Shown piece after piece: positions 10,901-48,113 of a DNA stretch of 64,000 nt. The notes under the pieces are model-generated. The model searched no databases. It was not told the origin of the DNA and saw nothing but the letters and a program-made list of their open reading frames with translations. Position 1 is the stretch's first letter; every line of letters starts with the position of its first letter. The stretch spans positions 24,120,001 to 24,184,000 of the forward strand of contig NC_087245.1 in assembly GCF_037042905.1 (NCBI RefSeq), written 5' to 3'. The DNA is from Lytechinus pictus (lineage: Eukaryota). Both the position numbers and the translations under genes were made by a program.

Positions 10901-13900
10901 CATAATCCACGAACATCGGAAAATCCGTGAAAAAGTCACCTTTTTAGACCCCTTGTTTCCTACATACGATGTTAAGAATCACTGATGGTGATATTTTTTA
11001 CGGGAAACATGGTGATTTAGGTAAGAAAATTTTACTTTTTATTTGAGGTTTTTGCCCATGTCGCCGGATGATTTTGTAGTGTGGGAGTGAGTTAGTGATG
11101 TAGCGTACATGTCTAGAGTGCGTTGGTGATTACAGTGGTATATTGCTGAGTCTGCTGATGATGATGAACGGCTGAAGGTCGCATGAACACCGGCCGCGTA
11201 CCGACTTAATTGCTCTTAAGTTAGATCTATCCCTACGCAATTTTAACATTGATCTGTACTTTATTTTTTGAATAATTGTCAATTTTTTGAGGAAGAAAGA
11301 TTATCAACTTTCGATCTCGGGTTGAGCCTTCGGAGCCGAACGCCAAATCTACTTTAATTGCTTCGCTTGCCTAAAGTCCCGGCGCCCGCCCAGTGGCTGC
11401 GCCTCAGCCTCCCCGTCTTACCGGGGCACTGCAAATGCAGTGGTAGGTGCGGGTCGGGCGCATGCAGCCGTTAGTTTCGGCTCCGTTTTTGTCATGGTTG
11501 AATATCTGCTTTCTTCTACCAACAAGCACTTATCCAATGTAGGTTATGATATAACCTTGTCCTCAGTCAGTAACCCCTGTGTGGTGAAATAACATGAATA
11601 AGACAATGTCAATGTTTGGCTTATTTTCTCTTGATGCATGAAATGATAGATTTTTTGGCTTGTCAGTTTTTAATACAGTAGGGATAACTTAAATCTAAAT
11701 TCATCATAAAAAATATGCCTTGGCCCATAACTCAATTGAAATCTTGAAATTATTTTTTGTTTAATTAAAAAGAGAATCTATGGAGATGAAGATCTGCATC
11801 AATCTCATCCAGCAATAGAGGGCCTCACAAAAAAATGCTCAAAATCAAAGTTTTTAGAGAGCTCTGATGAACAAGAAAAATTATCCCTAAGTCTATATAG
11901 ATTTAAATGAAAACAAATCACACCTGAATGAAACTGGGTGTTTTTTGTCACAGAGGTGATATTTTAAAGACCTTTTTTTATTTTTAATTGATAAATGAAG
12001 GTAAACTCTACATGTAGGTCATCCTCTGGTGTGGTAATGAGGGTAAATTTGCTTTAAAAAGTGTAGGGAAATGCTACTTTTACATGCTGAAAATGCAAAG
12101 AGTCCCTACCGTTGGAGCGGGCCGGACACCCGCTCGGCGCCCTCGGAACTTTGATACTGATTTTTTATTATCAAAGGTTGGCAGGTATGCCTGTATCTAG
12201 TCCACTTGTCAATCAAAACTTTCTTTTTGTGTGAATTTTTACAAATCAAACTTTGACTAAAAATTGTTATGTTTTTCCTCATTTTACAGAGACATGTCTA
12301 AAGACTGCCCCCCCTGGCATCAGAACCCATCTATATGATACCTTCACACAAGTGACCCCAACCCCAGATGGCCAAAGTGAAAAACAGTGAGTAGTCAAAG
12401 GAATATTCTGATTGTCAATAGGAGAGAAAGAGATAGTGAAAGAGAAGAAATAGTGATCAAAAGTTACTGGAGGATGATTGGAATGGCATTCAGATAGTTT
12501 CAATGAATTGCATTTTTATATTTACAGGCCTGTATTTTGAACATGGGGTTTTCACTGAAACCATGGCGATTGATTTCAAATGAGATGACTTTATTAGTAT
12601 CAGAGATTGTGATTGGCTTATCATTGATTAATATTGATGTATGAGTGTGTTTCTCGGAGGAGCATCAAATCTGAAAGTCATGATTACGCCAAGATTCATT
12701 GCTATAAACTGTATTTTTTCTTTCCATTCAGGCTTCTCTCTAAAAGCTGCAAGGACAAGCTCTTATCTTATATCCTGGTGTTGGCCCAGCTTATTGATAC
12801 CTTCCACACAGACATTACATCACTCACCAAAGACCTCAACGTCCCTGTCAAAAGGTCAGTGTCCTTTGTCCTCCTGTCTTTCACGACTATGGGGAGGGTG
12901 TGTCTCATTGTGTTTTACATAATAGTACAGTCTTCTTTAACTCTTTTTCTTGTGTCATGAAACTCAGAATCGATGGATGATGTTTAAATGTTATGTGGCC
13001 AGCCATAACTTGATGACATGAATTCATTGATTTCAGAAAAGTGAAACAGATCTGCCGAGTGTAAGATTAGAGCATGAATAAGACCAGTACCATATGAGTA
13101 GACAATATTCTTCTTGGTATGATGTGCCCACTTTGGTTGGCAGAAGCGAGTTAGTGTTTGTGGCGGTAGTCAATCGTAGTATGAAAAGGTTAACCCTAAA
13201 AAGGACTGGGGGCATGATGCGCCCCCCCCCCTGATCTCGGCCTCCATTCGTGCAATCGCGCCGAAATTTGGCACGCACATTCTTTACCACATAAACTACA
13301 AGCTAGTATTAAACGAAATTATTAAACAAAAATAATTATTTTTTTAATTATTATGAATAAAATATGCAAATTTATTTCACTTCAAAGTTTTTTCTTTTTT
13401 TGCAGATGTCATCTTTGTAATCTAATTTAAAGGTTTCCACAAAGAAAAATTGCGAAAGCCAATTTTTTCCTTATGTTTTTAGAATTTCTTATGTATTTCT
13501 TTGTGTTTTGATGTTTTGTTTTCCATTGATTTTTTCAATGGAAATTATTACAGACCATTTAACAACTAAATTAAACCCCAACTTAATTAAGCAGACCAAT
13601 TAGAATGAAAAATAATCACCCTTATATGAATTTCATCTCCCATAGACTTTGTACACAAAGTATAAAAATGAGCCATTTTCGGGATGACATTGCCTCATAA
13701 AAAGTCACGTGACGTCGCGATGGTATACCCGTATGTCGCAAATTTGGTCTCAAAAGTTGCGCGAGACTTCAAAGAAAAAATTCATAAAATTTTGCGGTGC
13801 TATCTTTTGCGTTTCGGAAATATCGCGTGAAGCGTTGAGGGGGGCCATCATGGCCCCCCAGTCCTATTAGGGTTAAGCATTATCATTGCATACATGTAGG

Positions 13901-21969: not shown

Positions 21970-24900
21970 CTGGTAAGATCGAGGATAATGATGTCATTAA
22001 TACACTTGGGTTTAAACCTATCCAGCCCAATGGGGGCAAAAACTGCACATGTAATATAAAGCCTCATCCTTATCTTTACATAATTTTGAACAAAAACAAC
22101 TCTCTTACAATCCTCACTGTAACCCTTGAACCTATGCCCTCTGAGATATTAAGACGGGAGCAAATGTTACAGGAGCATATATCGTGTCGCCAGATATCTA
22201 TATTAGGCAGAACATCTACACTTTAACCAGATATTAGCTGAGATTTTCCATATCATGTGGAACCCTTCCTTTGATATTACCCAGCGCCCTTAAAACATAT
22301 TATCCAACCTTTTTTCAGATCATACATGTATGTTATAACAAATATTCACAGTTTAAGGATTATTATTCTATGTCTGGGTTTATTCATCAACAATAACAAT
22401 CACAGCATCATATTGCCAAGATCTTATGATTATTTCCTTTATTTAGCAAAATGTATAGAGCTGTATTTATTAATGAATGACTCTGACACAAAAAAGAGAA
22501 AAATAAGACTAACCAGCTGGTTGAGCATGCGCGGGAACCATCATGACTACCGGTGTAACATTATTTGAATGTTGGTAGACCTAGGTAAAAGGGAAGGAAA
22601 AAATCTCTAGTTATCTTGTCAATGAAATAAAATGTATTGGGGGCGACGTCCCTTCCCCCAAAGAATACTAAAATAGGACAGCAGAAGAATGCGAGAGACG
22701 AGAAAGAGCAATAGGCAGACAGATATACAGAAGGTAATTAGAGAGTAGAGTCGAGAATATGAATATAAAAAAGTATATAGTAACTGCGCTATATAAAGAG
22801 AAGGGGGGGGGGTCGGGGATGATGCAGAAAGAACGAGAGAAATGACAAATGGGTAATAGGTGGGGGTGGGGGTATTGTGATTCATTCATAATATTACATA
22901 TATTTGATATATAAATTTAGAAGATGAACCACAAATACATAGTTATGACTGCTGTGATGTGATATGATCATGAAGTCGAAACAAAATGCATCTGCTTAGA
23001 GACGAGACAAACACAGTATTTAGTCAAACATATCAAGTAAAATAAGCAAGCAAAATGATACTCCTGACAACCGGTACTTTTTTCATTTTCTTATCATACT
23101 GATTTGAACTTACCATGGTACTTGTGTTATTAGTTCGTCCACAACACACTCCAGCACAGCAATAACAAGCTGCAACAATCGCAACAACAAGCTCAACTAA
23201 TCCTGTGAACACAAGGAAAACATCGAAGGCAATTCGGGCTCGCTGAGGAATGAATATATTAGAAAAAAATGGAAAAGGACAATTATTAATTTGGCAATTT
23301 TTGCCTATTGCTTTGTAATAACAAGCCGGCTAAGTGTATGTATAACAAAGGTGAAAAAAATAAATCCCAGCCCAGTTTCGGATTAGTGCTACCATTAGAC
23401 CGCTATGAATGAAAAGAAAATAATATCTAGTAATGGGGCAAGGGGCGACTCCCACCCTCCACATCTCATTCACATATCTTGTTATTTGAAGATAAAAAAT
23501 AACAGTGGGGGAGAGAAATAGTAGTGTTCAAAGAGATGACTTTCCCATGAAAATATATATTATATGTATACCCCTTGATTACTAAAAAAAAAAAAAAGCT
23601 GTAGAACTCGCATATGAGTCATCTTGCTCTCCTAAATTATATCTATGCCCCCCCCCCCCCGTCTATTTCCTCATAAGGCCCTTAAAAATTTGTTTTGTTG
23701 CCCTCATACATGTATGTCCCAAAACGTCAGAAAGTTGGGTCGGTCGTTTTTTTTTTTTTTTATCCTTCACTGCTGCGTTGCACAAAGAAAATGGGATGAT
23801 TATATGCAGTCAAACATATCAAAACGCATAAGTGCTTGTTAAAGCCCTTGAATAGAACTTTGGCAAAATCTTAGCCGAAATCTAACACTGTCTTTCTCAC
23901 AAAAAATAAACATTTCATTTGTAAATTAACTTGGGTCTGCTAAGAAAGAGAATGACCGTTTTTTGCACTCTACAGTCGGTGGAATGAGTGACACAATAAT
24001 TTTGAAGGCCTATTGCTAACAAATAGAAATTAATATCTTATAAAGCGTGGGAATCTAAACTTAAAGGTGAAGTCCACCTCAGAAAAATGTTGATTTGAAT
24101 CAAAAGAGAAAAATCAGACAAGCATAATGCTGAAAATTTCATCAAAATCGGATGTAAAATAAGAAAGTTATGACATTTTAAAGTTTCGCTTATTTTTCAC
24201 AAAATAGTTATGCACAATTTAGTCACATGCAAATGAGAGAATCGATGATGTCCCTCACTCACTATTTCTTTTGTTTTTTATTGTTTGAATCATACAATAT
24301 TTCAATTTTTAAAGATTTGACAATAAAGACCAACTTGACTGAAACATAAAATGTTAAACAATGGTAATTCCACATATTCAGGGTGAAATAAAACTTTGTT
24401 TCACAGGACAACGAAGAGAAAATTAGAATATTTCATATTTCATATAATAAAATACAAAAGAAATTGTGAGTGTGTGATGTCATCAGTTCCCTCATTTGCA
24501 TACCGACCAGGATGTGAATATAACTATTTTGTGAAATTAAGCGAAACTTAAAAATGTCATAACTTTCTTATTTTGCATCCGATTTTGATGAAATTTTCAG
24601 TGTTGTGCTTGTTGGATTTTTCTCTTTTTATTCAAATTCCACTTTAAACTTAATCCCACTTTTACCCGCTTTGCATGCTATTTCTATTTCTTACAAGGAA
24701 GTTGCTTCTACACAAGCAAATTACCAGCAAGTATTGCAAGGTTGCAATGAAAACTTGCAAAATGCCATCTTTCTCTCAAAATGAGGTGAATTCCTGCCAA
24801 CAACCTCAACATTACTATTTTTATCATTATTATTATCATCATCATCAATTATTTTTATTATTTTAACTTTGCCCATTTCACTTTTAAGAATTTTGGTGGT

Positions 24901-30427: not shown

Positions 30428-31984
30428 CGTCGATCCCGTGAGAGGGGCAAATATCGATTGGCCCAGCCCCCCCCCCCCACACCCATTTTGACAACTTCAA
30501 AAATTTGTAATATGCACGCAAATAAATGTTTTAAAAAAACATTGGAATGCACAGTAAACCTGACATAGAAATGTTTTTTAACATAGGTCTACAAAACTGT
30601 AATAGCTCTGGAATTTTTTTTTTTTTTTTTTTTTTGCGTGCTTTGCAAAATACCAATTATTTTACGCGAGAAAGCCCCTATACTAGTCAAAATTTCAAGC
30701 CTCCCCTTCTCATATAAATTCTTGCGAAGCGACACCGAAAAAGGGTATTGTGACATTACAAATCGCAGTAAAATTAGCTGCACATTAATTTTGTTGAAGA
30801 GTTCCTTCTTCACTTTCAGAAACCAGTACAAAAACGTGAAAATCACTTGTTCACCTCCATATATAGAGAGACACACACACGCATCCTCATACACACTCAC
30901 CCGAATACACATATTTTTTTACTCATCCCCCCCCCCCCCCTCCCTTACAAGGTAGTTCATATATAGAGACCTTGCAACATTGTCATGTTTTTCCAATAAC
31001 ATTTTTGTCCATTCCTTCACTCTTATTGGGCGAAAGGCCTTTAACATTATCCACAAAACACTATCGGTAAAAATTTGCCAAGCCGATGTTTGGGAAATAA
31101 GTTTGCTAGTAAGTGGTTGGGCAAATCAAATTGCCCATCAGTTGGTAACTTATCATATTTTACCAAACTATACAATAGCGCAACGGTTGGTTAATTTATC
31201 GTCCAATTCTTAATAAACAACCAACTATAAAACTAATCTTTCTTTAATATAATGGTTAGAAAACATATAATATCCTGCACTCCGTCCCAGAAATTTCTAA
31301 TTAGAAACACTTAATATGAACAAATATTCTGGCACTACTTTATTACAGTTATACTCTTCTTGAAAATATATGATCGATAAGACGATAACTATTTGAAATT
31401 TCATTAATTTACCATGAGCCGGAAGACGAATTCGCAGAAGCTGCAAATGAATATAATTATGCAAAAACAAAATTTTCCAACCAAACTTCCCCAACTTGAC
31501 ATAAGAGATCACCGAGCCTAAATAATAATGACGATCTTTGCGAAATTACCAAACTACAGTATCAGCTGTCCTATATATAAATTTATACCGAAACAATTTC
31601 ATACCATATTTATGTGGTTTGTCTTCACGCTTGGATAATCAGTAGATATTTTTTTGCTGTACAGTAAATCTTTTCAAAATGAATGAATCTTTGTTCATTT
31701 TTCTTCAAATGTTCATCATATTCATTCCATAATATTTATTTCACATTTTTGCACTTAACAACCACTTGTATCACTTGTTCTCTCTTCTACACATTCTCTC
31801 CAATCACTCTATTTAATGACTATTGGCAATTCAATGTATGTTTGCAAGTCTCTAACAATAAAAGAAACAAACGGGAACAGCATTTCAATTAATACAACCA
31901 TTTAATAGGAATAACAGATCAAATAAATATATCATACAAATATATTACAATTATAAGGATTAGTTCATCCTGCTAATACTACAG

Positions 31985-34420
31985 GAGGATAAATTTATCC
32001 TAATTTCAAGGCTACACGAGGATAAGTTTATCCTAATTTCAAGGCTAAACGAGGATAAATTTATCCTAATTTCAAGGCTGCACGAGGATAAATTTATCTT
32101 AATTTCAAGGATACACAAGGATAAATTTATCTTAATTTCAAGGCTTCATGAGGATAAATTTATCCTAATTTCAAAGCTACATGAGGATAAATTTATCTTC
32201 GTTTCAAAGCTACACGAGGATAAATTTATCTTAATTTCAAAGCTTCACGAGGATAAATTTATCCTAATTTCAAGGCTACGCGAGGATAAATTTATCTTAA
32301 TTTCAAAGTTACACGAGGATAAATTTATCTTAATTTCAAGGCTACATGAGGATAAATTTATCTTAATTTCAAAGCTACATGAGGATAAATTTATCTTAAC
32401 TTCAAAGCTTCACGAGGATAAATTTATCCTAATTTCAAGGCTACACGAGGATAAATTTATCTTAATTTCAAGGATACACGAGGATAAATTTATCTTAATT
32501 TCAAGGCTTCATGAGGATAAATTCATCCTAATTTCAAGAATACACGAGGATAAATTTATCCTAATTTCAAAGCTACACGAGGATAAATTTATCTTCGTTT
32601 CAAAGCTACATGAGGATAAATTTATCTTAATTTCAAAGCTTCACGAGGATAAATTTATCCTAATTTCAAGGCTACGCGAGGATAAATTTATCTTAACTTC
32701 AAAGCTACACGAGGATAAATTTATCTTAATTTCAAGGCTACATGAGGATAAATTTATCTTCGTTTCAAAGCTACATGAGGATAAATTTATCCTAATTTCA
32801 AGGCTACACGAGGATAAATTCATCTTAATTTCAAGGCTACACGAGGATAAATTTATCTTAATTTCAAGACTACATGAGGATAAATTTATCTGAATTTCAG
32901 TCTACATGAGGATAAATTTATCCTAACTTCAAGGCAACATGAGGATAAATTTATCTTAATTTCAAGGCTACATGAGGATAAATTTATCTTAATTTCAAAG
33001 CTACACGAGGATAAATTTATCCTAATTTCAAGGCTACACGAGGATAAATTTATCCTAATTTCAAGGCTACATGAGGATAAATTTATCCTAATTTCAAGGC
33101 TACACGAGGATAAATTTATCTTAATTTCAAAGTTACACGAGGATAAATTTATCCTAATTTCATGGCTACACGACGATAAATTAATCTTAATTCAAGGCTT
33201 CATGAGGATAAATTTATCCTAATTTCAAGGCTACACGAGGATAAATTTATCTTAATTTCAGTCTACATGAGGATAAATTTATCCAAACTTCAAGGCAACA
33301 TGAGGATAAATTTATCTTAATTTCAAGGCTTCATGAGGATAAATTTATCTTAATTTGAAAGCTACATGAGGATAAATTTATCTTAATTTCAAAGCTACAC
33401 GAGGATAAATTTATCCTAATTTCAAGGCTACACGAGGATAAATTTATCCTAATTTCAAGGCTACATGAGGATAAATTTATCTTAATTTCAAAGCTACACG
33501 AGGATAAATTTATCCTAATTTCAAGGCTACACGAGGATAAATTTATCCTAATTTCAAGGCTACATGAGGATGAATTTATCCTAATTTCAAGGCTACACGA
33601 GGATAAATTTATCTTAATTTCAAAGTTACACGAGGATAAATTTATCCTAATTTCATGGCTACACGAGGATAAATTAATCTTAATTCAAGGCTTCATGAGG
33701 ATAAATTTATCCTAATTTCAAGGCTACACGAGGATAAATTTATCTTAATTTCAGTCTACATGAGGATAAATTTATCCAAACTTCAAGGCAACATGAGGAT
33801 AAATTTATCTTAATTTCAAGGCTACATGATGATAAATTTATCTTAATTTTAAAGCTACATGAGGATAAATTTATCTTAATTTCAAAGCTACACGAGAATA
33901 AATTAATCCTAATTTCAAGGCTACACGAGGATAAATTTATCCTAATTTCAAGGCTACATGAGGATAAAATTTATCCTAATTACAAGGCTACACGAGGATA
34001 AATTTTTCTTAATTTCAAAGTTACACGAGGATAAATTTATCCTAATTTCATGGCTACACGAGGATAAATTAATCTTAATTCAAGGCTTCATGAGGATAAA
34101 TTTATCCTAATTTCAAGGCTACACGAGGATAAATTTATCCTAATTTCAAGGCTACATGAGGATAAATTTATCTTAATTTTAAAGCTACACGAGGATAAAT
34201 TTATCTTAATTTCAAGGCTACACGAGGATAAATTTATCTTAATTTTAAAGCTACACGAGGATAAATTTATCTTTATTTCAAGGCTACATGAGGATAAATT
34301 TATCCTAATTTCAAAGCTACAAGAGGATAAATTTATCTTAATTTCAAGGCTACACAAGGATAAATTTATCTTAATTTCAAGGCTACACAAGGAAAAAATT
34401 ATCTTAATTTCAAAGCCACA
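31985..34420. repeat. 33-bp tandem satellite, ~74 copies
   Basis: Unit GAGGATAAATTTATCYTAATTTCAARGCTACAY repeated head-to-tail without spacers. Confidence 0.97.
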
Positions 34421-34536
34421 GCAATTACACAATTCACCTTAGAATAATTTAACACTTGGTTATTTCATTGGGTGGCAAATGACATTTATGATTAAATTTG
34501 CATTGGACTTGTAGACAAGAGTAAGTTTTTCATTAA

Positions 34537-35120
34537 AGGTCAAGTCCACCCCAGGAAAATGCTGACTTGAATCAATAGAGAAAAATCAAACTAGCATAGT
34601 GCTGAAAATTTCATCAAAATCAGATGTAAAATAAGAAAGCTATGACATTTAAAGTTTCGCTTATTTTTCACAAAACAGTAATATGCACAACTAGGTGAGT
34701 CAGTCGATGATGTCCATCACTCACTATATCTTTAGTTTTTTATTGTTTGAATTATACAATATTTCATTTTTTTATAGATTTGACAATAAGGACCAACTTG
34801 ACTGAACCATGGAGTATTAAACAATGCTGATTCCACATGTTCAGGGAGGAATTTATCGTTGTACCACTTGACAATGAGAAGAAAATTAGAATATTTCATA
34901 TAATAAAATACAAAAGAAATAGTGAGTGGATGACGTCATGGTCTCCTCATTTGCATACCCGCCAGGATGTGCATATAACTATTTCGTGAAATTAAGTTAA
35001 ACTTTAAAAAGTCATAACTTTTTTATTTTACATCCAATTTTGATGAAATTTTCAGCGTTATGCTTGTTGGATTTTTCTCGTTTTATTCAAATCAACTTTT
35101 TGTAGGGATGAACTTGTCCT
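34537..35120. mobile_element. Kolobok-like MITE
   Basis: TTAA TSD; AGGTCAAGTCCACCCC / GGGATGAACTTGTCCT termini with long TIRs. Confidence 0.85.
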
Positions 35121-35227
35121 TTAACTTGTGGCCTGTGGTGCATGTTCAAAATTATGTAAACAACATGTATGTAACTATGTACCCGGGTTAACAAATATGT
35201 AAAATAATCTGTGACAGCTCTCCTGTC

Positions 35228-35399
35228 CTGGGCGTTGTGGCTTGCGCCTGTAATCCAAGCTGTGGGGAATCAAGTTACAAATTGATGCAGAGGTTCGAGC
35301 CCTGGTCACGTCTTTCGATTGTGATGTTAAAGGTTGGTCCCAGACGTAAATAATCATATCTGATTGATACACGTCTGACAAAACTCAAATACACACACA
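35228..35399 (+). mobile_element. SINE with 7SL/Alu-like head, B box, Deu/Nin-like core and CA tail
   Basis: Perfect TSD TCTCCTGTC at 35219-35227 and 35400-35408; head CTGGGCGTTGTGGCTTGCGCCTGTAATCCAAGCT; GGTTCGAGCCC at 35292-35302; (AC)n tail. Confidence 0.75.
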
Positions 35400-37337
35400 T
35401 CTCCTGTCTTCCAGAGACTTCTCAATGTCCTTCCCAATCCAGTTGTGGTACTTCTGAGTTCTGTAATGACATTTAAGGAGAAAAAAATATTTTAACTCTA
35501 TACAGCAATTAGTTATTGTGTCAAATTTTGAAATGCAAAGGTTTTTCATATTGTAATATGAATGATTTGTACTGATAGTAATCAATTTTATTTACATCAC
35601 ATTCACTGTTAACCTTAAGATGGGCTAGCTTTTGTGGCTACTCCATGGCCAGATGGTTGTATACACGTACCCAACCCTTGCCCCCCCCCCCAAAAAAAAA
35701 AAAAACCTGCAGCTGAACGAGCACAAAATTTCAACAATGGTAATGTGAGATGTATTCTGCAAAGCGATTTTGCTTACTTTTCAAAACTAAGAGAGGCATA
35801 ACATAAGCGATTTTGTGTCTCGCCCACTTATGAAAATAACCAGAAATATCATGATTTGCAAGGGCACGCAACATATATAATTATTATTATAATAATTATT
35901 TATAATCACATATTAAATTTTAGTATTTGTTAAATAATAATTTGTATCTATAAATTGTTCTTCAAAACGGCATTTTGTAACATCACTAATCGCAGGTACG
36001 TAACGAAGCAGTTGATGGGCGAGACCTATTGTATTTGCTTTGTTGACAAACGGATGAGGGATCTACGAGAGATCGGTCTGGTAAGAAACCTTCCATGTTT
36101 CGCCTTTTCATTAACCAATTTTGGAAACTTTCATACCCATTAGATGATTAGGCGTATGAAGGTGTAAACAAAACAAAATCAAAATCATTTACGTGATTTT
36201 TATCTTAAAAGATGGATTTCCTAGGGAAATCCATCTTTGTTTACAAGTGTCTGTCTTCCGGGGGGCTTCCGGGGGGCTGCCCTTCCTGTCATCAGAGGGT
36301 TAAAGCCTCCTGTAGGTTCCAGGATGCTGTAAGCACTAGGAGCATGATTTTTACTTGCACTTCACCAATTTTATTGTAAATAGAATTCCAACAAAATTGT
36401 CTGCACCATCACCTTCTGTCACAGCACATCCCATCCCAGTTTAGCTTGGAAGAGCTGCTTAAGGGATTATTCCTTCAAGGTTCAAGGTTGTCTCTTTAAA
36501 TGGCAGGTGGTTCAAGGCTCCATGATGAAGAAGTATGTCAAAATATAAAAAAATTATCATCATGGAGTCCTCAAGACTATCGACTAGGACCTACATGTAC
36601 ATTAAACTTAGACATTATCTCACTCACTCAGGCACACATTATCATTAAAATTTACAATATCTCACCTCCATCATCTCTTTGTTTCGCCGGACGGAAACGA
36701 CAGGCCTGTTGTACACTTCCCCAGTCCTCTTCGATTGAGCAAGTTGCCCGTTGACTTGAAGAAACAAAGACAAAGTGTGGACTCCGAGTTCTTGTCCCTT
36801 TCGCTCGAACTGCTTGGCTGGCTCTGCTGGGACGGCCGCGCCCGGGCCGGAGCGAGTGACCACAGACAGTGAACAAATACGGCACGACCACTACCGGTAC
36901 CAGCTGAAGAAGATGAAACTCTCGTAGTTTTAACTCGTAATTAAAAATGTCAATAATAACGCGTAAGAGAACTTCAGAAGATAGAAACACTTAAACAGTA
37001 AAACGTGATCCAAAACAAAAACAATGTCGAGAAGAGCTATTTTGGCTTAATCAAGGACAAGGTTATCGAGAGCGGTTTGTAATCAACAGATGTCATGTTG
37101 TGAAAAAACTAGTACCGTATGCGTTCGAGGTCCGTGGCAATGCATGTGCAGCGATGTGCAGCATGCGTGACACATCCCCTATTGTTATAGCGAGAGCAGG
37201 GCTATTATTCTATTGGTCTCGATAAACTTTAATCTCCATTCGATTCCCTGACTCTGCTTTTGTTTTGCAAGTACGCTCCTAGCTAGGGTTACAGCTATTC
37301 TACGAACCGAGACCCTAACATAATTATGTCAAATTAT

Positions 37338-37549
37338 TTCACAACACAACACAACATTATATCAATGATGAATCGTTTGTCATATGATTAGAATGAGCAA
37401 AAAGAGATGTTTTGGGGTACATTTTCAGTGTCCAAAAGGGGAGAGTTGTCCAGTTTTGGACACTGAAAATATACCCCAAAACATCTCTTTTTGCTCATTC
37501 TAATCATATGTCTTGACAAACGATTCATCAATGATATAATGTTGTGAAA
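37338..37549. repeat. fold-back (hairpin) MITE, ~90-bp arms
   Basis: CACAACATTATATCAATGATGAATCGTTTGTCA..TGTCCAAAA mirrored by TTTTGGACA..TGACAAACGATTCATCAATGATATAATGTTGTG. Confidence 0.8.
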
Positions 37550-40345
37550 CCTCTGTACTTGTCCTCTCATAAAGAGAACACCTCACCTTGTGATAGGCTC
37601 TATAAAAGTGAGAATATAAGTGAAATAAGTACTAAAGTAATGAGGGAGTTGTACGTGTGTGACATCACAGATCTTGGTCGCATTGCCAATGAGAGGATCT
37701 ACATGGCATTAGTGATCTCAATATTCAAATGCTCATAACTTTCTTATTATTCATTCAATCTTCCTCAAACTTTCAACAATATGTTTCTTTGATTTTTCTC
37801 TTTTATATGGATTCAGCTGGGTTCAAGGGTTTCATTCTCCTTTAATACATGCATGACGCATCTCATGTTTTGTGGATGATTTGGAATAATCGCTTGTGCT
37901 CGAGTATAAATGCGTCTGTGTATACAGACTATCATGCTATTGTCAATGTGCCCCGAATGTGTGCATGATAGATAGCATATGACCATGAGCATGGAAGATG
38001 AAAAACTGGGCATTATTGACCGTCCTTTAAAAAAAATGGCCGTGGTAAAAAAAGGTTGGTTCAAAAGAGTAAATCCATGGTCTTGTGATGATTAAGGATG
38101 ATATCTATTTCATCTGACATTAACGTTTTATCAATTTTGATTGTTATTAAAACAAACATGTGCCACTATTACTTTAGTCATGCAAATTACATGACATTGT
38201 CTTCCATATTTTTCCTTTATTCCTTACAATCGAATGGATAAAAACCAGGGAGTTGGGAGTGGATGAACTGCTATAAGCTAGCCTATATACTTTAAAATTT
38301 AAATTGTTAACTTGTCCTTCTACATTCAGATCTTTGCATGGGTGTCGATCCCGGGGGAGGGGGTATTATACCCCCCCCCCCCCCGGCCCCCGGCCTTGTA
38401 TATTAAAGCGTAGTACTTGTAGTCTTATAAGGATTGCAACCTCTACTGGCGTGCGTGATGTTGGGCTATAGGATCGACCATGGAAGAAAAGGGGTGAATT
38501 TGATAAATATAGGCCCTATATTTGTTTATGTCAAAACTTGTTACAAAATCAAATTCCGATTAAAACGATGAAAATGTTTGCTCGCTGGCTTCGCCTTCTC
38601 ATTTTTTTCTAAAATAGATTTTGCCTATTATGTTATGTCTGGACCGCGCAAAATGTATGCATCCCCACCCCCCCCCCCCCCATCGAACTAACAAAAAATC
38701 CCTCACAGAGAACAAAAGTTTGGTCTGTCATCCCATTGCCAGAAGCAGTGGGGGGGGGGGTTACTCCCTCCCTAAAAAAAAAGGAATAGGCCGGGCCTAC
38801 CGAAAATGTTTTACTTTGGAAATTGGAAATTGTAACAAAATCAAGGCATTATAATTGTGCACAAAATCCTTCGATTTCATTTAGACAATGCCAGAGCGCC
38901 CCATGGCATGGACCTATCCACGGAGGACTCCCCAGCCTCCCCCCCCCCCCCCGCTTCCGCGGCCCCTGTTGGTAGCTCTTGCATATAGCAGGTCTACTTT
39001 GCGTTATTCAGATGAGACGTGGAGAAATTATATTGCTTGCAAAAAAAACGCTCCTCACAGGTTATTTATCGGCCTAAATCATATTAGAGAAAATTGAAAA
39101 AATATTAGCCAAAATACGGGAAGAGATATAGGCCTACCCTGTGTGGTAGGACACGAATATGTGACGATTCAAATTAACAGTTGCTATCAGCTTACATGTC
39201 ATGCTGTTCAGCATGTTCAGTCAAAATTAACGCCACACATAATTATGGGCTGAGTATTCTTACACGCCCCTTCGCAAAACATTTTTGTTCGTCCTTTCAG
39301 TTCCACAAACTTAACTGAGCGCACATTCTTGTCATCAGACTGTCTTCACCTCAGAAATGAGTATTTCCCCCTAAATAAGGCATTCAATTTTGTGACGCCT
39401 GTTTTGGCACTTAAATCAGTTAATCATCTTTTGGTTGAAAATGCTATAGGCACGGATAGGCCTTGAGGAAGTTCCTTCAAAATGGCCGTGATATTATGAA
39501 GAACTAAAATCAGAGCAGAAAAGATACATCAATACATTGGTTTAGGGGGGCTAAAATTGTGTTTCTCGTGTAACGGGAGACCTCAAAATGCAAAATTTCC
39601 ATTTGAGTATATACTCTAGAAACTAGCGCATGTTATTTTTATTGTTTATTTCAGAAAGAGTGGTCATATTGCAAGTGAGTAATCCATTTAGCATATCAAA
39701 TACTTTTTTGAGAACTTAATGCCGAAAAATACTTTTCAATGTTTCTGATGTAAAAAGTAAATAGTAAATATTTTCAAAGTGTACTTTGAAGTGGACACTT
39801 AATGTTTAAATAGAAACCACAAATAATGCATAAATTAAGTAGAAATTTTAGCAATAACATAAAATAAGATTTAATGAAAGCAATGCATGGTGTGTCACAA
39901 CGTAATATTTGGGGGGTCACCAAATTCATCTACAAAATACAATAATGACCATACTTTTCATTATTTTTTATATTATTGCTAATCATTCTTTCTAAACATA
40001 AAACTATATGTAATGGCTACCAGAAAAAATCTTTAGAAAGGTAATATGCATTCTACACCCAAAAGTCGGTGTTTCCCATGTAAGCCATTTAGGCCGGGGG
40101 ACACCAAACCTTACATGGCATATAGTAACAATATCTTTTGATTGTCATTTTCTCTGAAAATTAATATGGGTTTTTCTGTACCTTTTTCGTATCAATAGAC
40201 AAATCATTTTTTTAGATTGTTCTTTGGGCCTGATAGCGCCATCATAAAATGATGAAAAGTGTCCCTGACTGACACATACACACCCGATCACGAAAAGAAA
40301 ACAAAAATAGGTTAGAAATGAAAATGAAAGTCATGTATTTTATAT

Positions 40346-41629
40346 CAACTGCGTAGACAGGATTTAATTTTGGAGGGGTGGTAAGTGCACGCGAAGCGTG
40401 CCAACACTTACAGAGCGCGCGAAGCGCACTCTCGAAGGAAAGGGTGTAGGGAAGTTCTTGATATCTCATTAATTTAATATGAAAAGAAGACATCTCTTGC
40501 ATCTCTAGTATCCTTATCAACTCGCCCCCACTTGCTGTGATTAAAACAAATGTATTTGAAAGAAATTACGAGCTTCCCCAAATTAATGGGAAAAGATTTT
40601 TAAAACCGTTGAATGATATAATACCGCACGAAGCGCGGAAGCTAAAACGTTTTATAAAATTGAGAACAGAAGTGGCATAAAATGCCTACCTTGGTCGCAT
40701 CATATTTGATGATGAAAACTTTAGCCACAGTAGATGTCTTTAGATCACAAATAGTAGAAGACGGGTATGCAATGAGGAAATATTCCTTTCCGCGAATGGT
40801 TTTGAAGCTCTGAATTGAAACTTTAACCTGCTCTAATTTTGATATTTCTTAGATTATAAATGGATAACGATGAAAAAGGAAGCTCAAAATGTGAAAGGGC
40901 CCAGTGATGCAAGCCAGACTATGAGAGGGACTTTTCATTTCCCTTCCACGTGAAATACGGTAACATCTGTGATTTATTTCGGGAGAATTATTAATTATGA
41001 TTCAGAAAGTTCAGTGATATTCAAAATTTCAAATCAATCGCACAAAACAAGACAGGAGATGGGTGTAACAGCGATACAGAATAAAGTTTCATCGTACATA
41101 TAGCACGGCACGAATTTATAATGCCTCGAGCCCCTTTTGAGCAGATACTTTGCCACAAATTACTCACTGAAAAGTTGGAAGATATCATAATAATTATGGG
41201 AATTAACTCTGGGAGTGGCGGGAGTGTTGACCCGCTCCGAACAGAAGAGCCGAAATTTTGTGTCAATGCAATTTAAAAAAGAATCATCATATTTTTTCTT
41301 AAATTTATGTATACTCTATAATTTATGGCAAGAATATACAATTCCCATAGATGGGAAGGGGAAAAACCGTATCATATAGTTTGGATAGAGCTCGAAAGCA
41401 ATTTTTTTAATGAATTATAAGAGAGAAAACTGAACGTCTCATTTAGGTTTTTATTCTTTTGACAAAAAAAATACCAAAAGAGAAAACATTAGGGCTGTAC
41501 CCATCTTCCCTCTCTTCGCTTTTCCTTTTCCTTTCTTCTTCCCTTTTCCTCTCTTATTCTTTTTAGAGCGTTTTTTTGTTGGGGGGGGGGGGCGACCACC
41601 CCCATCGCTTCCCCCTGGCTACGCGCCTG
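40346..41629. mobile_element. hAT-like non-autonomous element
   Basis: CAACTGCGTAGACAGG ... CCTGGCTACGCGCCTG; imperfect TSD TTTTATAT/TTTTATTA; homologous to 57637-59042. Confidence 0.75.
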
Positions 41630-41809
41630 TTTTATTATGGTGCTCCTCGTTTGAGGTAAATCTTAAACGGAATTCCTAAAACCTTCACCAATATTTTTTT
41701 TCGACTGCTTTTTACAACAAACTTTTCTTCAGGGAGAACTTTCCCTTCTTTTAAAAAGGTATACACTTTCCAACACACACCCGCTCCCATCTATTACGGA
41801 CATGCACAT

Positions 41810-42800
41810 ACACATGTACCTTCTTAAGGGATTTAACATATATTTGGATGTGAATAAGAATTGTTTAGAACTAGGTGAGATAATCGATAGTGATAGAGTA
41901 TTAGAAGAAGAAATAGAAGAAATAAAAAACAAAGTTGAAGATATTTTCAATCGCCAGTTCTTATTGGATTTACGTAATGATCGAGCAAATGATGTTGAAC
42001 AAAATAAATTGATAACTTAAGTTTTTAAACAGAACATACAAACAGAGAAATATCTATTAACTGTTAAAAATCAGAAAATACGGAAAAACATCTGTCGATT
42101 CAGAATAAGTTCCCATAATTTACCCATTGAAACTGGAAGACATAGACGTCCAGATTAAATACCCTCACATTTAAGAACGTGCAATAATTGTAATTCAGGA
42201 AGGGTTGGGGATGAGTATCACACGATAATAGAATGTTATGTACACACAACTGAAAGGGTGGTGTTTTTTGACAAAATAGCTGAAATGTATATACAGTTTA
42301 AGAACCTTAGCGATGAAGACAAATTTATATTCATAATGAAACTTGATAATGAAAATTAACATAATTGATAATTTTTGTAAGTTCTTCAATGCGATTATAA
42401 ATAATAGGGGTGAGTTTTAACATCAAGTACATTTTATTTTCTTTTTAAATTTCATTCAAAATATCTAAAATCCACCAAAGCCACCATTACCAAAGATATA
42501 TCTCTAACGTTATACATTTATTTATTTCCTGATTTGTATTCGATAATAACTTATGTATATTGCATTATGCTACACCTTCTTTATGTTAAATTTCAATTCG
42601 TCATTTCTCTTTGTATATATATAGATGTATATCTTTATAATAATTGGAAATCTATGTATTGATGTATTGCTGGTTTATACGACATACATGTACAGTTATG
42701 AATGTTTTTGTTTATGTTATCATTGTAGGCCTATATATTTTAAAACAAAATATTCATGCCATATGAATGAAGTTTGTTAATAAATTCAAATTCAAAATTC
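41810..42800 (+). mobile_element. 5'-truncated CR1/L2-group (Crack-like) LINE
   Basis: Interrupted ORF2 C-terminus EKYL..RKNICRFRISSHNLPIETGRH..RTCNNCNSGRVGDEYHTIIEC, AT-rich 3'UTR, AATAAA(TTCAAA)n tail. Confidence 0.85.
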
Positions 42801-43205
42801 ATGTACGGAACCGTACATCATGTATATAGGTCCATGATCATACCATGGAGGTAGACCAGTAACATACAAAGAAAAAAATACGAGACACAATACAAGTTAC
42901 GCACCCTCACACACACCATGGACCTATATGTTCAGCACACACACACACTGGACGACGGCGCCCCTGTCCACCCTATAGATACCCTATGCCCACGGCCACA
43001 CGATAGTACGCGTGCAAGAAGCTTGATTTCGCAATCAATCGCACGTGTGTTTTGTTTGTACACAAATCTGACGTTGGGCATCACTGACACTGCACTGCTT
43101 AATAATTGCATCTCGAAATCTAAACTGTTCACTCGTAAATCTAAGTACTTTTCATTCAGCACACATTTGCAATGTGGACTAAATTTAAACGAAGAAGAAT
43201 ATACG

Positions 43206-43438
43206 ATGGCGACGAAGCGCGACATCTTTTCGAAGCTCTCTATTTTACAGAAGAGGAAAATGCTGCAACAAGTGAAGAGGCCACCAGTTTACGGGCCGGA
43301 GTACGGCTTAGCCTTAGGCGGGGACGACTCCCAGGCCAGCCTAGGAGTCGAGTTTTTGCGATTTGACATCAGCTACGGGTTTGAAGATTGCAACAAGCAA
43401 CGACGTTGTTCGAGCAGATCCCGTTGGCGAAGAGAGAG
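43206..43438 (+). other. possible first exon (MATKRDIFSK...) of the downstream transposase-derived gene or an unrelated transcript
   Basis: GC/CpG-rich island with acgATGG start, open frame and strong donor gag|GTAAGG at 43438/43439; in-frame link to later exons not demonstrable. Confidence 0.3.
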
Positions 43439-43814
43439 GTAAGGCGCGCCTATTAAAGGCTAAGCCTACTTAAGTTACTTAACCTAGCCTAAGCCTTAGC
43501 TTAGCCTTTAAAGTTTAAGTTTAAATATAGGCTATATTTTTAGTTTATTTAGTACTACTTTACTGGGGATTACATACATGTACTAGACTAAAGTCTAGAC
43601 CTTTTTAGGCTATCCTCGAGTCTGTCTAGTCTAGGCTACATGCATCATTGTACATGTATGAATTGTAGCATAGAGCAATTGCCTTGGTCTCTGTTAAATT
43701 GGTTGTTCCGCCACCAAAGACTGTTTAGTGTTGGCTCGATCCACCTACCAATTACAGAGAAATTAAAAAAAATATTTAGTAACTCCTTGAGACAGACGGC
43801 ACCCAGCTGTCTAG

Positions 43815-44622
43815 GGGTGCGTTTATCCGCCACTTTTTTACCCTAGAATCATGATCTGAATCATGATTCAAATCATGATTCTGCAGAATCACGATTGCGT
43901 TTAGTCGAAATTGAATATAATCATGATTAGAATCACAAACATGAAACACGAAAAAAGGGGCGTTTGGAAAGACGTTTCTGCAGAATCACGTACGAAAATG
44001 TTCGAATAAACGATATCGTGATTTGAATCATGATTCTATGACCTCACTGTTGTGTCGGGCTACTTTCGGTTTGACTCTTGCCTAGCTCAATGCGCTGTAT
44101 GTACATGAATATGTACTACGCATGCATTTCTTGTCATGTTCAAGCTCTGTGTTGGTCATCGCATCGTCCACTACTGTTCATTTATTGGTCATGTCTTCAA
44201 CTTCAAGTTCTATAGTAAATGAATTAACTGGACAGACAATGATCTCAGTTGTTGAGTATACAGTATCAATACTAAATTGGATCTACGCTGAAATTCACTT
44301 CCGAACACCATCTTGGATAAACTAACAAGATGAATAGAAGCATATGGACCATATATGATAGAAGTAAACAAAATGAGGTATAGACTGAATTCTGGAAGCA
44401 AAAGATTTTTCGAGAGCCGAAACACGTGCGAAAAACTTCCTCTGTCAAACTGCGCACTAGTGATGCGCACTGGATTGGCCCGAATCTGAGGAGAAACGGC
44501 ATTGGAATGAAGGTCGTCTAAACGCTGATTTTTTGATATTGTGATTCATGTTTGTGTTTTGAATCATGATTCAAATCATGATTCAAATCATGATTCTGGC
44601 TTGAGGTCGCATAAACGCAGCC
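43815..44622. mobile_element. PIF/Harbinger-like MITE
   Basis: TAG TSD; GGGTGCGTTTAT / ATAAACGCAGCC TIRs; subterminal AATCATGATTC repeats. Confidence 0.8.
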
Positions 44623-44839
44623 TAGATCTACAATGTAGATGTAGCATGACTAGACCAAAAGATTTCGGTCTCTGTTATGTTGGTTGTTCCGCTGAACTCC
44701 GTTGGCTCCACTCACCAAATACAGAGACCGAAGTTGTAGCTCGATCTGTACAGGGACTCAATGGCCATATGTTTATGTATTAAGTTCAGATCAACCTGGG
44801 AAGTGGGAGTTGCGCGACAGCCGAAGTAAGTCACTGTTT

Positions 44840-45790
44840 TCCCCCCTTTTAAATGCTTGCTGATTTTGTTAAAATTATATCTAAACACAGGAAGCACTTG
44901 TAGTCATTATAACCATGATTAACATACGCATCTCACTATTGCAAGCGCGAAGCGCGAGCTGAAAATTTAGGAAATTCAGACCTGAAGAGGGGCATTCTAA
45001 GGCTTGTTTGTAGGAATGCACTAAGACCATACGTATTTCACTAATCAAATGATGCGAGTGCGAAGCGCGAGCTGAAAATTTTTGATATTCAAATCAGAAA
45101 AAGGGACATCTTAAGGAATATTTTTAAAGAATCCATTAAGAGTATACATATCTTACCATAGTCAACTAATGTGAATGCCAAGCACTTGCTGATTTGGTTA
45201 GAATTACATCTAAACACATGAAGCACTTTTTTAGTCCTTGTAATCATGATTATCACATGCATCTCACTAATCAAATATTGCGAGCGCGAACAGAAAATAA
45301 AGGAAATTCAGACCTGAAGAGGGGCATTCTAAGGCTTGTTTGTAGGAATTCACTAAGACCATATGTATTTCACTAACTAAATGATGCGAGTGCGAAGCGC
45401 GAGCTGAAATTTTTTTATATTCAAACCAGAAAATGGGACATTTTAAGGACTGATTTTAGGAATTCATGAAGAGCAGATATCTCACCAATCCTTTAATGCG
45501 AACGTAAGCACGGACAGGAAATGTTTTATATTAAGACCGTAAAATGGGCCGATCACTTTTAGTAGTCATGAAAAAGAAGAATATGTCACTACATAAAATG
45601 ATAATAGCTCGAAGTGCGAGGAAATGTATTTGTTGTATATTAACTTGTATATTAACTCTCAAATATACTTGAAAACTATAGTATTCCGAAAAAATATTTG
45701 ATCTATTATATCTCGTTAAACAGACAATGCAAGCACCAGGAACAATGAAGACATTAGCCCTGAGCAAATCATGTTTCATAAAGTTATGAA
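44840..45790. mobile_element. internal fragment of a GCGCGAAGCGCGAG-repeat DNA element, with ~333-bp tandem duplication
   Basis: AGGAAATTCAGACCTGAAGAGGGGCATTCTAAGGC recurs at ~44968 and 45301; same motif family as 48763-50283. Confidence 0.6.
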
Positions 45791-46818: not shown

Positions 46819-48113
46819 TTTTTAGCTTATTTCGCGGCGTTGCATCCGTCGTCTTTCGTCCGTCCACAATTCCAAAATGCTTTGTCATTTCAAGTCCGAT
46901 TTCAATTCTGTTTGCTTTATATGATAGCACAGGTGGGGGATTCAAAACTTCTACACAGAATTTTGAAACTCATTAAATATGCTAATTCATGCGCATTTTT
47001 TCAAAATTCACAAAAAATGCTTCTTTATTTATTGACAGATTTTGATTTTTTGCTTCCACCTGGTAGAGCTTTATGAAGTTCACCAAACTTCTACGCAGAA
47101 TTTTGAAATTTTGACTAAAACATTTTTTATGCTAATTGAAGCGAAATTTTTTAATGCATATTTTTCAAAATTCACATAAAATGCTTCTTTATTTGTTGAC
47201 TGATTTGATTATTTTTTCTTCCATCTGGTTGAGCTGCATGAGGTTCACAAACTTCAACAAATAATTTTGACTAGAAAATTACTTAAATGCTAATTTATGC
47301 AAAATTTATTCATAATCACAAATAAATGCTTTATTAGTTGGTCAATTTTGATTTTTTTTTCCCTCCATCTGGTGGAGCTACATGAGGGTCACCAAACTTC
47401 CCCACAGAATTTTAAAATGTTGACTAGAAAATTATGCTAATTTGTGATATTTATGCGAAATTTATCAATAAATCACAAAAAATGCTTATTTCTCCTTCAT
47501 TTGTCAAAATTTGTTTGCTTTATATGTTATACCGAGGTTGTTTTACCTGACTGCTAAGAAAGCACGAATGCCTGTGAGCAAGCAACCAGGGGACCAACGG
47601 CTTAAGGTCCTCTCCGAGGGACCTGGTAATGAGGATAAATGCCTTACCAAAGGGCACTAGCGCACCACTTGGGAATCGAACCCGAGTCACCGGAATCCGA
47701 AACCCCCGCTCTACCGACTGAGCTATCGCGCCTCCAGGTGGGGGATACAAAATTAGAAATCATTAAATATGCTGCATGTATTTCATGCATATTTTTCAAA
47801 ACTCACAATAAATGCTTCTTATTTATTTGTTAACCGATTTTGATTTTTTTTGTTCCATCTGAGAGCTACATGGGGTTCACCAAGGTTTTACACAGAATTA
47901 AGAAATTTTGACTAGAAGATTATTTATGCTTATACAATTTTTTTTTCATAAATCACAAAAAAGCTTCTCTCATTTATTCATCAATTTCAATTCTGTTTCC
48001 TCAATTTATGTCACCAATATAATTCACTACATTGTCAACTGGGCTGAAATTAAAAATTGTGTTCAATTTCTTTGCGAGTTGCCGGATGAGCTCCACATCA
48101 TTGATGTGCTAGT
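46819..48113 (+). mobile_element. Helentron-associated (HINE/DINE-1-like) element with internal ~170-bp repeats
   Basis: TTTTTAGCT 5' end, (CGTC)n microsatellite, tandem subrepeats, 3' GATGAGCT sub-TIR plus CACATCATTGATGTG hairpin and CTAGT. Confidence 0.6.
47520..47735 (-). mobile_element. tRNA-derived SINE (V-domain-like core), well preserved
   Basis: Minus GGAGGCGCGATAGCTCAGTCGGTAGAGC..GGTTCGATTCCC, then GTGCCCTTTGGTAAGGCATTT..GGACCTTAAGCCGTTGGTCCC. Confidence 0.85.

Follow-up and report, generated by a model that had tools for sequence, protein, structure and literature searches.

The window analysed here is a 64-kb stretch (64,000 nt) of genomic DNA from the sea urchin Lytechinus pictus (NC_087245.1, forward-strand positions 24,120,001 to 24,184,000). 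At 35228–35399 it holds a short interspersed element (SINE) of 172 nt that ends in (AC)n and begins with a piece of the host 7SL RNA, the signal recognition particle (SRP) RNA (Table 1). Bare coordinates refer to positions in the window and L-numbers to loci or copies elsewhere in the same genome, of which 812 Mb in 368 contigs were searched. A preliminary description of this DNA had placed here a 172-bp insert between perfect 9-bp direct repeats, with an (AC)n end and a B box at 35292, and had read it as a 7SL-derived, Alu-like SINE of an invertebrate. The coordinates were borne out, and so was the invertebrate host.

Table 1. The SINE copy of the window, its parts and the repeat that carries it.
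Feature	Position	Strand	Remark
Large dispersed repeat carrying the SINE	31661..44852		At least 13 kb, about 15 loci, class unassigned
5' target-site duplication TCTCCTGTC	35219..35227	+	Also present singly at the empty site L240
7SL-derived head, 5' Alu domain (7SL nt 1-47)	35228..35275	+	
Pol III A box GGCGTTGTGG	35231..35240	+	Identical in host 7SL genes; putative function
UGU U-turn motif between helices 3 and 4	35249..35251	+	Invariant in a 14-row alignment
Linker and T-arm/acceptor-like segment with B box	35276..35312	+	Not derived from 7SL RNA
B box GGTTCGAGCCC	35292-35302	+	Within the T-arm-like segment
Short body motif like the start of a Deu domain	35309..35341	+	
3' stem-loop, CAGACGT/ACGTCTG with inner AATCA/TGATT stem	35341..35377	+	Predicted -13 kcal/mol
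(CA)n tail	35391..35399	+	
3' target-site duplication TCTCCTGTC	35400..35408	+	

Origin of the head

The SINE head corresponds to nt 1–47 of host 7SL RNA, with an end that falls exactly at the closing helix of the 5' Alu domain; we regard this assignment as practically certain. Scanning the genome with the Rfam SRP model gave seven full 7SL genes (272–283 bits) and 18 weak matches, and all 13 of the weak matches that were retrieved proved to be copies of the SINE. The first 30 nt are equal to host 7SL at 29–30 positions. In the window copy, 27 of the first 28 aligned nucleotides are identical, and copy L048 agrees with the 7SL genes L031 and L037 in 41 and 42 of 47 columns, respectively. The local alignment score between head and 7SL was 67–68, compared with 17 ± 3 for shuffled sequences, none of which (0/300) reached it. 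On the Rfam SRP model, L048 scored 32.3 bits (E 4.4e-7) over model positions 1–44 of 299, including both hairpins and the closing helix, whereas Rfam scans of SINE copies gave no tRNA match up to E 10. The comparison of SRP and tRNA models suggested in the preliminary description thus came out on the side of SRP, and its proposal of a 7SL-derived head is upheld.

The closing helix also points to a donor. Six of the 7SL genes have ACC/GGU here, whereas both the SINE and gene L037 have ACU/AGU, a two-sided change that preserves the pair; because this form is common to L037 and the SINE, L037 or its lineage is the likeliest source of the head. This gene (G000:C12:4895279-4895577, minus strand) has a helix-4 region one base longer and no downstream B-box-like motif, and its loop type recurs in a fragment at L277. 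The 7SL-type loop was located at 12 places, namely the seven genes, one main-family copy, two fragments and the insertion of a variant (L276/L278, see below).

The remainder of the SINE, including the region where a 3' strand of 7SL would be expected, showed no match to 7SL. Elements of the Alu type retain both the 5' and the 3' strands of the Alu domain, while here the Rfam match ends at model position 44. SINEBase asks for at least 60% identity to tRNA, 5S or 7SL over at least 60 nt (PMC3531059); the 7SL overlap found here, 47 nt at 87–89%, is shorter than this. By its head, the element is best described as a SINE1, although not of the Alu type. The near identity of the head to the host genes, together with a body and tail unrelated to 7SL, supports an origin independent of Alu. 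The Alu-likeness put forward in the preliminary description therefore holds for the first 47 nt and is lost beyond them: the 3' Alu strand, a 7SL-derived B box and poly(A) are all missing, and the rest resembles a tRNA-SINE type body.

SINE copies also occur beside 7SL genes themselves. At G000:C10:7911762-7920824 (L083, L084, L031, L035, L036), SINEs on the same strand end about 35 nt upstream of each of three tandem 7SL genes, with two SINE copies before one of these genes and an inverted copy 1.4 kb upstream. These SINEs probably represent one insertion that was duplicated with the gene.

The window copy and its carrier repeat

The window copy is a worn member of its family. Its head lacks the A at +1 and carries a private G>T change in loop 3, a short helix-4 loop and a 3-nt insertion close to the head end. 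It scored 17.9 bits (E 0.004) on the Rfam SRP model in a 131-nt scan, and no SRP match was returned by an 801-nt Rfam scan around it or for the whole window at gathering score. Each base of the UGU motif, which is an SRP9/14 contact in the SRP, is conserved at 98–100% across the 52 full-length copies of the sample described in the next section. The position of the A box matches that given for 7SL by Kojima (2020; PMC7245038); here and below, statements on cited papers refer to the accessible parts of their text. The loop–loop complementarity GGCTT/AAGCT of the preliminary description did not survive, as it needs the T of the window lineage, where 96% of the 52 full-length copies and all seven 7SL genes have G.

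Searching with the right flank gave 16 matches in 15 loci, 14 of which contain the SINE or its 3' part at the same junction. The other, L240, is an empty site that has the 9-mer once (8/9 identical), and the 9-bp direct repeat is therefore a true target-site duplication. Ten other top-scoring SINE matches have the same flanks as the window copy. The left end of the carrier repeat is sharp at 31661 in all six loci examined, its right ends are variable, and it reaches at least 44852. The window copy is thus a single insertion into a 13-kb repeat, where it made its duplication and was then multiplied passively with the repeat. Retrotransposition, as claimed earlier, accounts for this one event, but most of the look-alike sites were reached inside the larger repeat.

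No recognisable coding sequence was found in the carrier, with no Pfam match in six open reading frames and no tblastn match to the retrieved proteins of long interspersed elements (LINEs). It contains a 33-bp minisatellite (31953-34420) whose two strands both have long open frames of RLHEDKFILIS-like repeats, probably not coding. Two related inverted-repeat (MITE-like) elements of about 590 nt, 84% identical, lie at 34533-35124 and 24058-24645, and the first of them, an insert in the carrier, is absent from the empty-site locus L240.

Copy number, age and subfamilies

A DNA search returned 1,511 first-look candidates, and the 40 that were scored yielded 46 matches, of which all but one are close to full length, with 89–100% identity in these 45. 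The element is 165–185 nt long. Exact counts over the whole genome were 998 for a head 18-mer, 850 for a tail 27-mer and 1,181 for a tail 18-mer, and a body 38-mer with up to three mismatches matched 1,474 times (reversed-pattern controls, 0). The family has about 1,500 copies as a lower bound, spread over many contigs, in keeping with the multi-copy SINE that had been predicted.

To avoid selection by the head, copies were sampled by the tail, taking 49 of the 50 tail matches on contig C1 and the first 14 on C2. The resulting 64 copies in 63 loci comprise 52 full-length and 12 5'-truncated elements, with a median identity to the consensus of 98.2%, a value biased upwards by exact-match selection. 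All 64 have a (CA)n tail of about 2–13 units, as expected of a sample picked by a tail motif. The junction between head and body is the same in all 52 full-length copies, apart from internal deletions in a few, a uniformity that sets them apart from 7SL retrocopies. The helix-4 loop divides them into subfamilies of 17, 9, 21 and 5 copies, and the B-box 7-mer is doubled in 27. After removal of two duplicated loci, duplications of at least 6 nt flank 13 of 62 copies, compared with 2.3 expected from crossed flanks, and those of at least 9 nt flank six (0.1 expected). The marks of retrotransposition are thus present, namely target duplications, a variable simple-repeat tail and 5' truncation; the excess of duplications, together with the empty site, substantiates the target-primed signature that the preliminary description had recognised. 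The family is young and probably still mobile.

Half of the 12 truncated copies (L057, L058, L060, L061, L068, L069) start within 4 nt of one another, just past the acceptor-like strand, which may reflect either a stop of reverse transcription at a hairpin or a cut of the tRNA 3'-processing type. Head-to-tail arrays or dimers of the SINE were seen at G000:C18:3952126-3953037, at C2:17634227-17634670 and at L039-L044, and the L039-L044 dimers have common flanks, being carried inside another repeat.

A divergent variant, L276/L278, derives from one insertion that was duplicated, and has a longer linker. Its helix 4 is perfect and 29 of its 30 head bases are unchanged, the one exception converting a G-U pair to A-U, and 31 of 47 linker columns are common with the main family (hand count). 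A much older copy, L288, has the same linker as this variant and a decayed 7SL-like head (0/200 and 0/300 shuffles as good); the family therefore predates its recent burst. Both variants sit in or adjoin other repeats.

The B box, the body and the promoter

Both A and B boxes are present as sequence motifs, and the B box has a source outside 7SL RNA. Alignment of the linker with the 7SL gene body stayed within the range of shuffles (18–45 of 300), the B box does not come from 7SL nt 76–86, and none of the seven 7SL genes has a consensus B box inside. Six of them (L031-L036) have GGTTCGAGTC 19–43 nt beyond the gene end, followed by GGTGT. A wider form of this motif, a post hoc pattern built from these flanks, occurs nine times in 812 Mb, six times behind 7SL genes, and the other three places have no adjoining Rfam RNA. 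The flanks are otherwise mostly unalignable, and three of the six motif-bearing genes are tandem duplicates. This conserved B-box-like motif could be an external promoter element of the 7SL genes. A downstream B box is known for yeast U6; a literature search by title or abstract start found no report of one downstream of 7SL genes.

The linker resembles both this flank and tRNA. In the variant, it aligns with the flank behind 7SL gene L032 at 20 of 25 positions (1/500 shuffles as good) and at 22 of 32 (3/500) with the stretch of a tRNA-Lys gene that runs from its anticodon loop to its T loop, and the main linker aligns with the L032 flank at 16 of 20 (3/300). The tRNA genes searched for a B-box donor were of the Lys type. 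About 40 tRNA-Lys-type genes form a tandem cluster at G000:C4:9700711-9735957. Compared by eye with one Deu-SINE, hagfish SINE2-7B_EBu (supplement of PMC7245038), the body motif agrees at 21 of 25 positions. On account of the acceptor-like strand and the Deu-like motif, we favour a tRNA-SINE over the 7SL flank as the probable source of the B box. Two looser body patterns designed for the parent SINE gave two and no matches.

Within the window, ARAGORN calls a tRNA-Arg at 47660-47731 (minus strand), which is the head of a tRNA-SINE that we take to be similar to sea urchin SURF1. Despite a look-alike motif, its alignment with our element was not significant (112/500 shuffles as good), and it was discarded as a relative. 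As for expression, five runs presumed to be RNA contain SINE sequence as contigs, a form of data that cannot reveal transcript starts or the polymerase.

Folding and SRP9/14

The first 50 nt alone were predicted to fold as a 5' Alu domain in four of four copies. On inspection, a conserved loop–loop pairing, GUGGC with GCUAC, is intact in 7SL and in the oldest loop type, and weakened in the others. The genome contains an SRP14 exon. Since the head reaches just to the limit of the 5' domain, changes at paired positions keep the pairs, the isolated head folds correctly and SRP14 is encoded, we propose that the SINE RNA may use SRP9/14, which we consider slightly more probable than the contrary. 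The 3' stem-loop appears in the full-length folds of all four copies and is likely to serve as a LINE recognition signal.

Search for a partner LINE

Among 90 LINE loci, the best match to the SINE tail was 30 of 41 nt at the very end of one family (terminal window, 0/2,000 shuffles as good). This family (L143, L144, L149, L262) has about 30 copies with 99–100% protein identity and (AAATC)n ends. Its frames of 1,008 codons contain an RVT_1 domain, its relatives are proteins of about 1,000 aa with endonuclease and reverse transcriptase, and it would appear to belong to the CR1/L2 group. A near-identical SINE tail was absent from the 3' regions that were searched, those of 70 of 150 RVT_1 loci and of 20 of 150 relatives of the best candidate. 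The SINE tail with foreign upstream sequence was found once, and this match was a truncated SINE. Several other LINE families with long intact frames are present in the genome.

Other genes in the window

Exons of the gene for RPA49, a subunit of RNA polymerase I (Pfam A49), lie at 7117-7494 and 12628-12960. Three matches to an RPA49 exon were obtained among 53 candidates, all in sea urchins, at 61–88% identity.

Discussion

Taken as a whole, we consider it fairly probable that this young sea urchin SINE arose when the 5' Alu domain of host 7SL (nt 1–47) took the place of the front part in an older tRNA-type SINE. Together with a borrowed consensus B box about 55–60 nt further on, the A box of 7SL would form an internal Pol III promoter, by which new copies could be transcribed; judged from the motifs, such a promoter is highly probable. 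New copies would be made by target-primed reverse transcription, carried out by a LINE that recognises the 3' hairpin and the (CA)n end. The best candidate for this partner, which we name tentatively and hold to be somewhat less likely than not the right one, is the young CR1/L2-group family with an APE endonuclease and a reverse transcriptase. Finally, the head may fold first and bind SRP9/14, so that the RNA would reach ribosomes and meet newly made LINE ORF2 protein, as Alu does; we give this last step only a modest advantage over its absence.

Several observations weigh against this account. The parent tRNA-SINE was not found, and none of the 64 tail-anchored copies has a tRNA head. About four in five copies lack a duplication of at least 6 nt. 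In full-length RNA, the pairing probability of helix 3 is 0.03–0.13, compared with 0.98–1.0 in 7SL, and forcing the Alu domain costs 3.1–6.7 kcal/mol in four copies and nothing in 7SL, although pseudoknot and protein are left out of the folding models, in which the helix also disappears from partial 7SL transcripts. Bases just past the head are able to pair with the UGUAA motif. Most young copies have a changed or shorter helix-4 loop, the partner of loop 3 (short in 21 of 52), and the head of young copies is not less mutated than the rest (non-CpG changes 1.25%, compared with 0.7–1.9% elsewhere). As to the partner, the preliminary description had suggested looking for a LINE that shares the 3' 50 nt; the terminal match speaks for such a LINE, but an antisense stretch of another family reaches the same score in a whole-locus scan (mean 25, SD 3.9, n 180), and the end of the candidate LINE lacks the SINE hairpin.

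The rival that draws most on these observations accepts the same origin and gives the 7SL head no other role than an A box and a stable 5' end, with no use of SRP9/14 and a LINE that selects the RNA via the 3' hairpin alone. The unfavourable full-length folding, the drift of loop 4 in the most numerous subfamilies, the lack of extra conservation of the head among young copies and the lack of a poly(A) tail for an Alu-type hand-over to ORF2 would all suit it. Against it, the head extends 30 nt beyond the A box and ends where the 5' domain has its natural limit, changes at paired sites keep the pairs, and nt 15–30, outside the A box, are the same in the main family and its divergent variant, whose linkers differ. 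We consider this rival unlikely, yet the most serious of those examined. A further possibility, compatible with all the other steps of the favoured account, concerns only the B box, which might have come from a deletion joining the 7SL 5' domain to the motif downstream of 7SL genes, with body and tail added later. The presence of this motif at six of seven 7SL genes that have no internal consensus B box, the six of nine genome occurrences of its wider, post hoc form behind such genes, and the alignment of the L032 flank with both linkers are in line with such a deletion. Most of the alignment score is nevertheless due to the B box itself, and tRNA-Lys, the type of tRNA gene compared with the linker, is almost as good; an acceptor-like strand and, at once, the Deu-like motif follow the B box, as in tRNA-SINEs; and the motif is missing around the end of L037, the 7SL gene most similar to the SINE head. 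We therefore regard this route as improbable.

The 7SL origin itself leaves little room for doubt. Were the element an ordinary tRNA-derived SINE (SINE2) with a head that merely resembles 7SL, a poor cloverleaf found by ARAGORN in the first 90 nt of some copies, the T-arm/acceptor-like character of the 3' half of this region, and the tRNA derivation of all the sea urchin SINEs in the accessible text of PMC3747384 and PMC4758252 would be readily explained. Yet the cloverleaf appears only at a relaxed score and nothing is called at default, Rfam gave no tRNA match, and the head scores 10–16 against the four tRNA-like types compared, within the range of shuffles and far from its score with 7SL. 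Given in addition that nearly all of its first 30 nt equal host 7SL, a tRNA origin is refuted for nt 1–47, barring a tRNA nearly identical to them, and the chance of this explanation is negligible, although the B-box segment may derive from the 3' half of a tRNA. Scarcely more probable is that there is no self-propagating family at all, and that the copies are chimeric 7SL retrocopies of independent origin, duplicates made passively or contamination with vertebrate Alu. Fourteen copies, that of the window included, have indeed spread inside a larger repeat and some copies form tandem arrays, but one fixed junction and common subfamily variants recur across copies with unrelated flanks, and about 1,500 copies lie on many contigs, while the 7SL-type loop motif occurs in only 12 places, seven of which are the genes. 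Moreover, 14 runs from five studies of one organism hold 82–94% of the sampled words, although the best of these runs may be the source of the assembly. Runs labelled as sea urchin or echinoderm metagenome contained fewer than five words and were left out of the evidence.

According to the accessible text of a recent paper (February 2026, PMC13023118), in which invertebrates, urchins and echinoderms go unmentioned, 7SL SINEs are exceptional: they share one central deletion and are known from supraprimates, shrew moles and a hagfish, and from no other taxa; the list of known cases in the preliminary description lacked the shrew-mole Urop. SINE1-1_EBu of the hagfish Eptatretus burgeri was called the first SINE1 outside Euarchontoglires (Kojima, 2020; PMC7245038). 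Sea urchin SINEs are listed as tRNA-derived or CORE-type (PMC3747384, PMC4758252, PMC3531059, in part), and we found no report of an invertebrate 7SL SINE in a literature search that covered mostly titles and abstract starts and few subscription papers. The family may already be catalogued in Repbase, Dfam or SINEBase under a SINE2 or unknown label. It is conceivable, though we would not bet on it, that the element represents a fourth independent origin of 7SL SINEs and the first in an invertebrate, with a bare 5' Alu domain kept for SRP9/14, a B box from outside (possibly from the 7SL flank) and a CR1/L2-group LINE reading the 3' hairpin. If so, the piracy of SRP9/14 would be a device of general use, dependent on neither poly(A) nor L1. 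An invertebrate case of different build shows that the central deletion is not the sole route to 7SL SINEs. The subfamilies that differ in the helix-4 loop, the older variant and the candidate LINE with its intact frames make a benefit from SRP9/14 without poly(A) or L1 testable.

The element is also a natural test of the idea that a 46-nt domain is enough for one jump but, having no B box, cannot spread. This 5' Alu domain of 46 nt binds SRP9/14 and has about 86% of Alu activity in HeLa cells (Moldovan, 2025; PMC12199147), and its authors suggest that such a piece failed evolutionarily for lack of a B box or internal promoter. As in their SA46 and AY46, the same piece of about 46 nt of 7SL stands at the RNA 5' end in the urchin SINE. 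The SA46 construct, however, was given an external promoter and poly(A) and was assayed with human L1 ORF2p, whereas the urchin SINE has a B box from outside.

Compared with other 7SL SINEs, the closest parallel is SINE1-1_EBu (PMC7245038), which likewise is young, has a simple-repeat tail in place of poly(A) and reaches a similar copy number (2,363, compared with about 1,500 here), and in which a 7SL head stands on the back of an older tRNA-SINE lineage and the partner is not L1, as is probable for the urchin SINE. The hagfish element retains the 3' Alu strand and 96 nt of the 5' part of 7SL, B box included, and has RTE-derived tail parts and duplications of about 17 bp. The urchin SINE retains only 47 nt, takes its B box from elsewhere, has a Deu-like motif and ends in (CA)n, and its duplications are short or absent. 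With Alu, FLAM, B1 and Tu of Euarchontoglires and the shrew-mole Urop, it has in common a head from the 5' Alu domain of host 7SL and similarly spaced A and B boxes (PMC13023118). Those elements arose by a central deletion of about 183 nt that retains both 7SL ends, and have poly(A) and L1; the urchin SINE, a monomeric element of an invertebrate, lacks both a 3' 7SL strand and poly(A). The nearest precedent for its hybrid head is a unit of tree shrews that may derive from both 7SL and tRNA (PMC13023118). Behind the head it recalls the Deu-domain and sea urchin tRNA-SINEs (SURF1, SINE2-3_SP), in which a T-arm-like B box is followed by a motif like the Deu start and for which CR1/L2 LINEs are listed as partners (PMC3747384, PMC4758252). 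Compared by description, these SINEs differ from it in their heads, which are listed as tRNA-derived, and the urchin 7SL SINE has only about 30 nt of Deu-like sequence.

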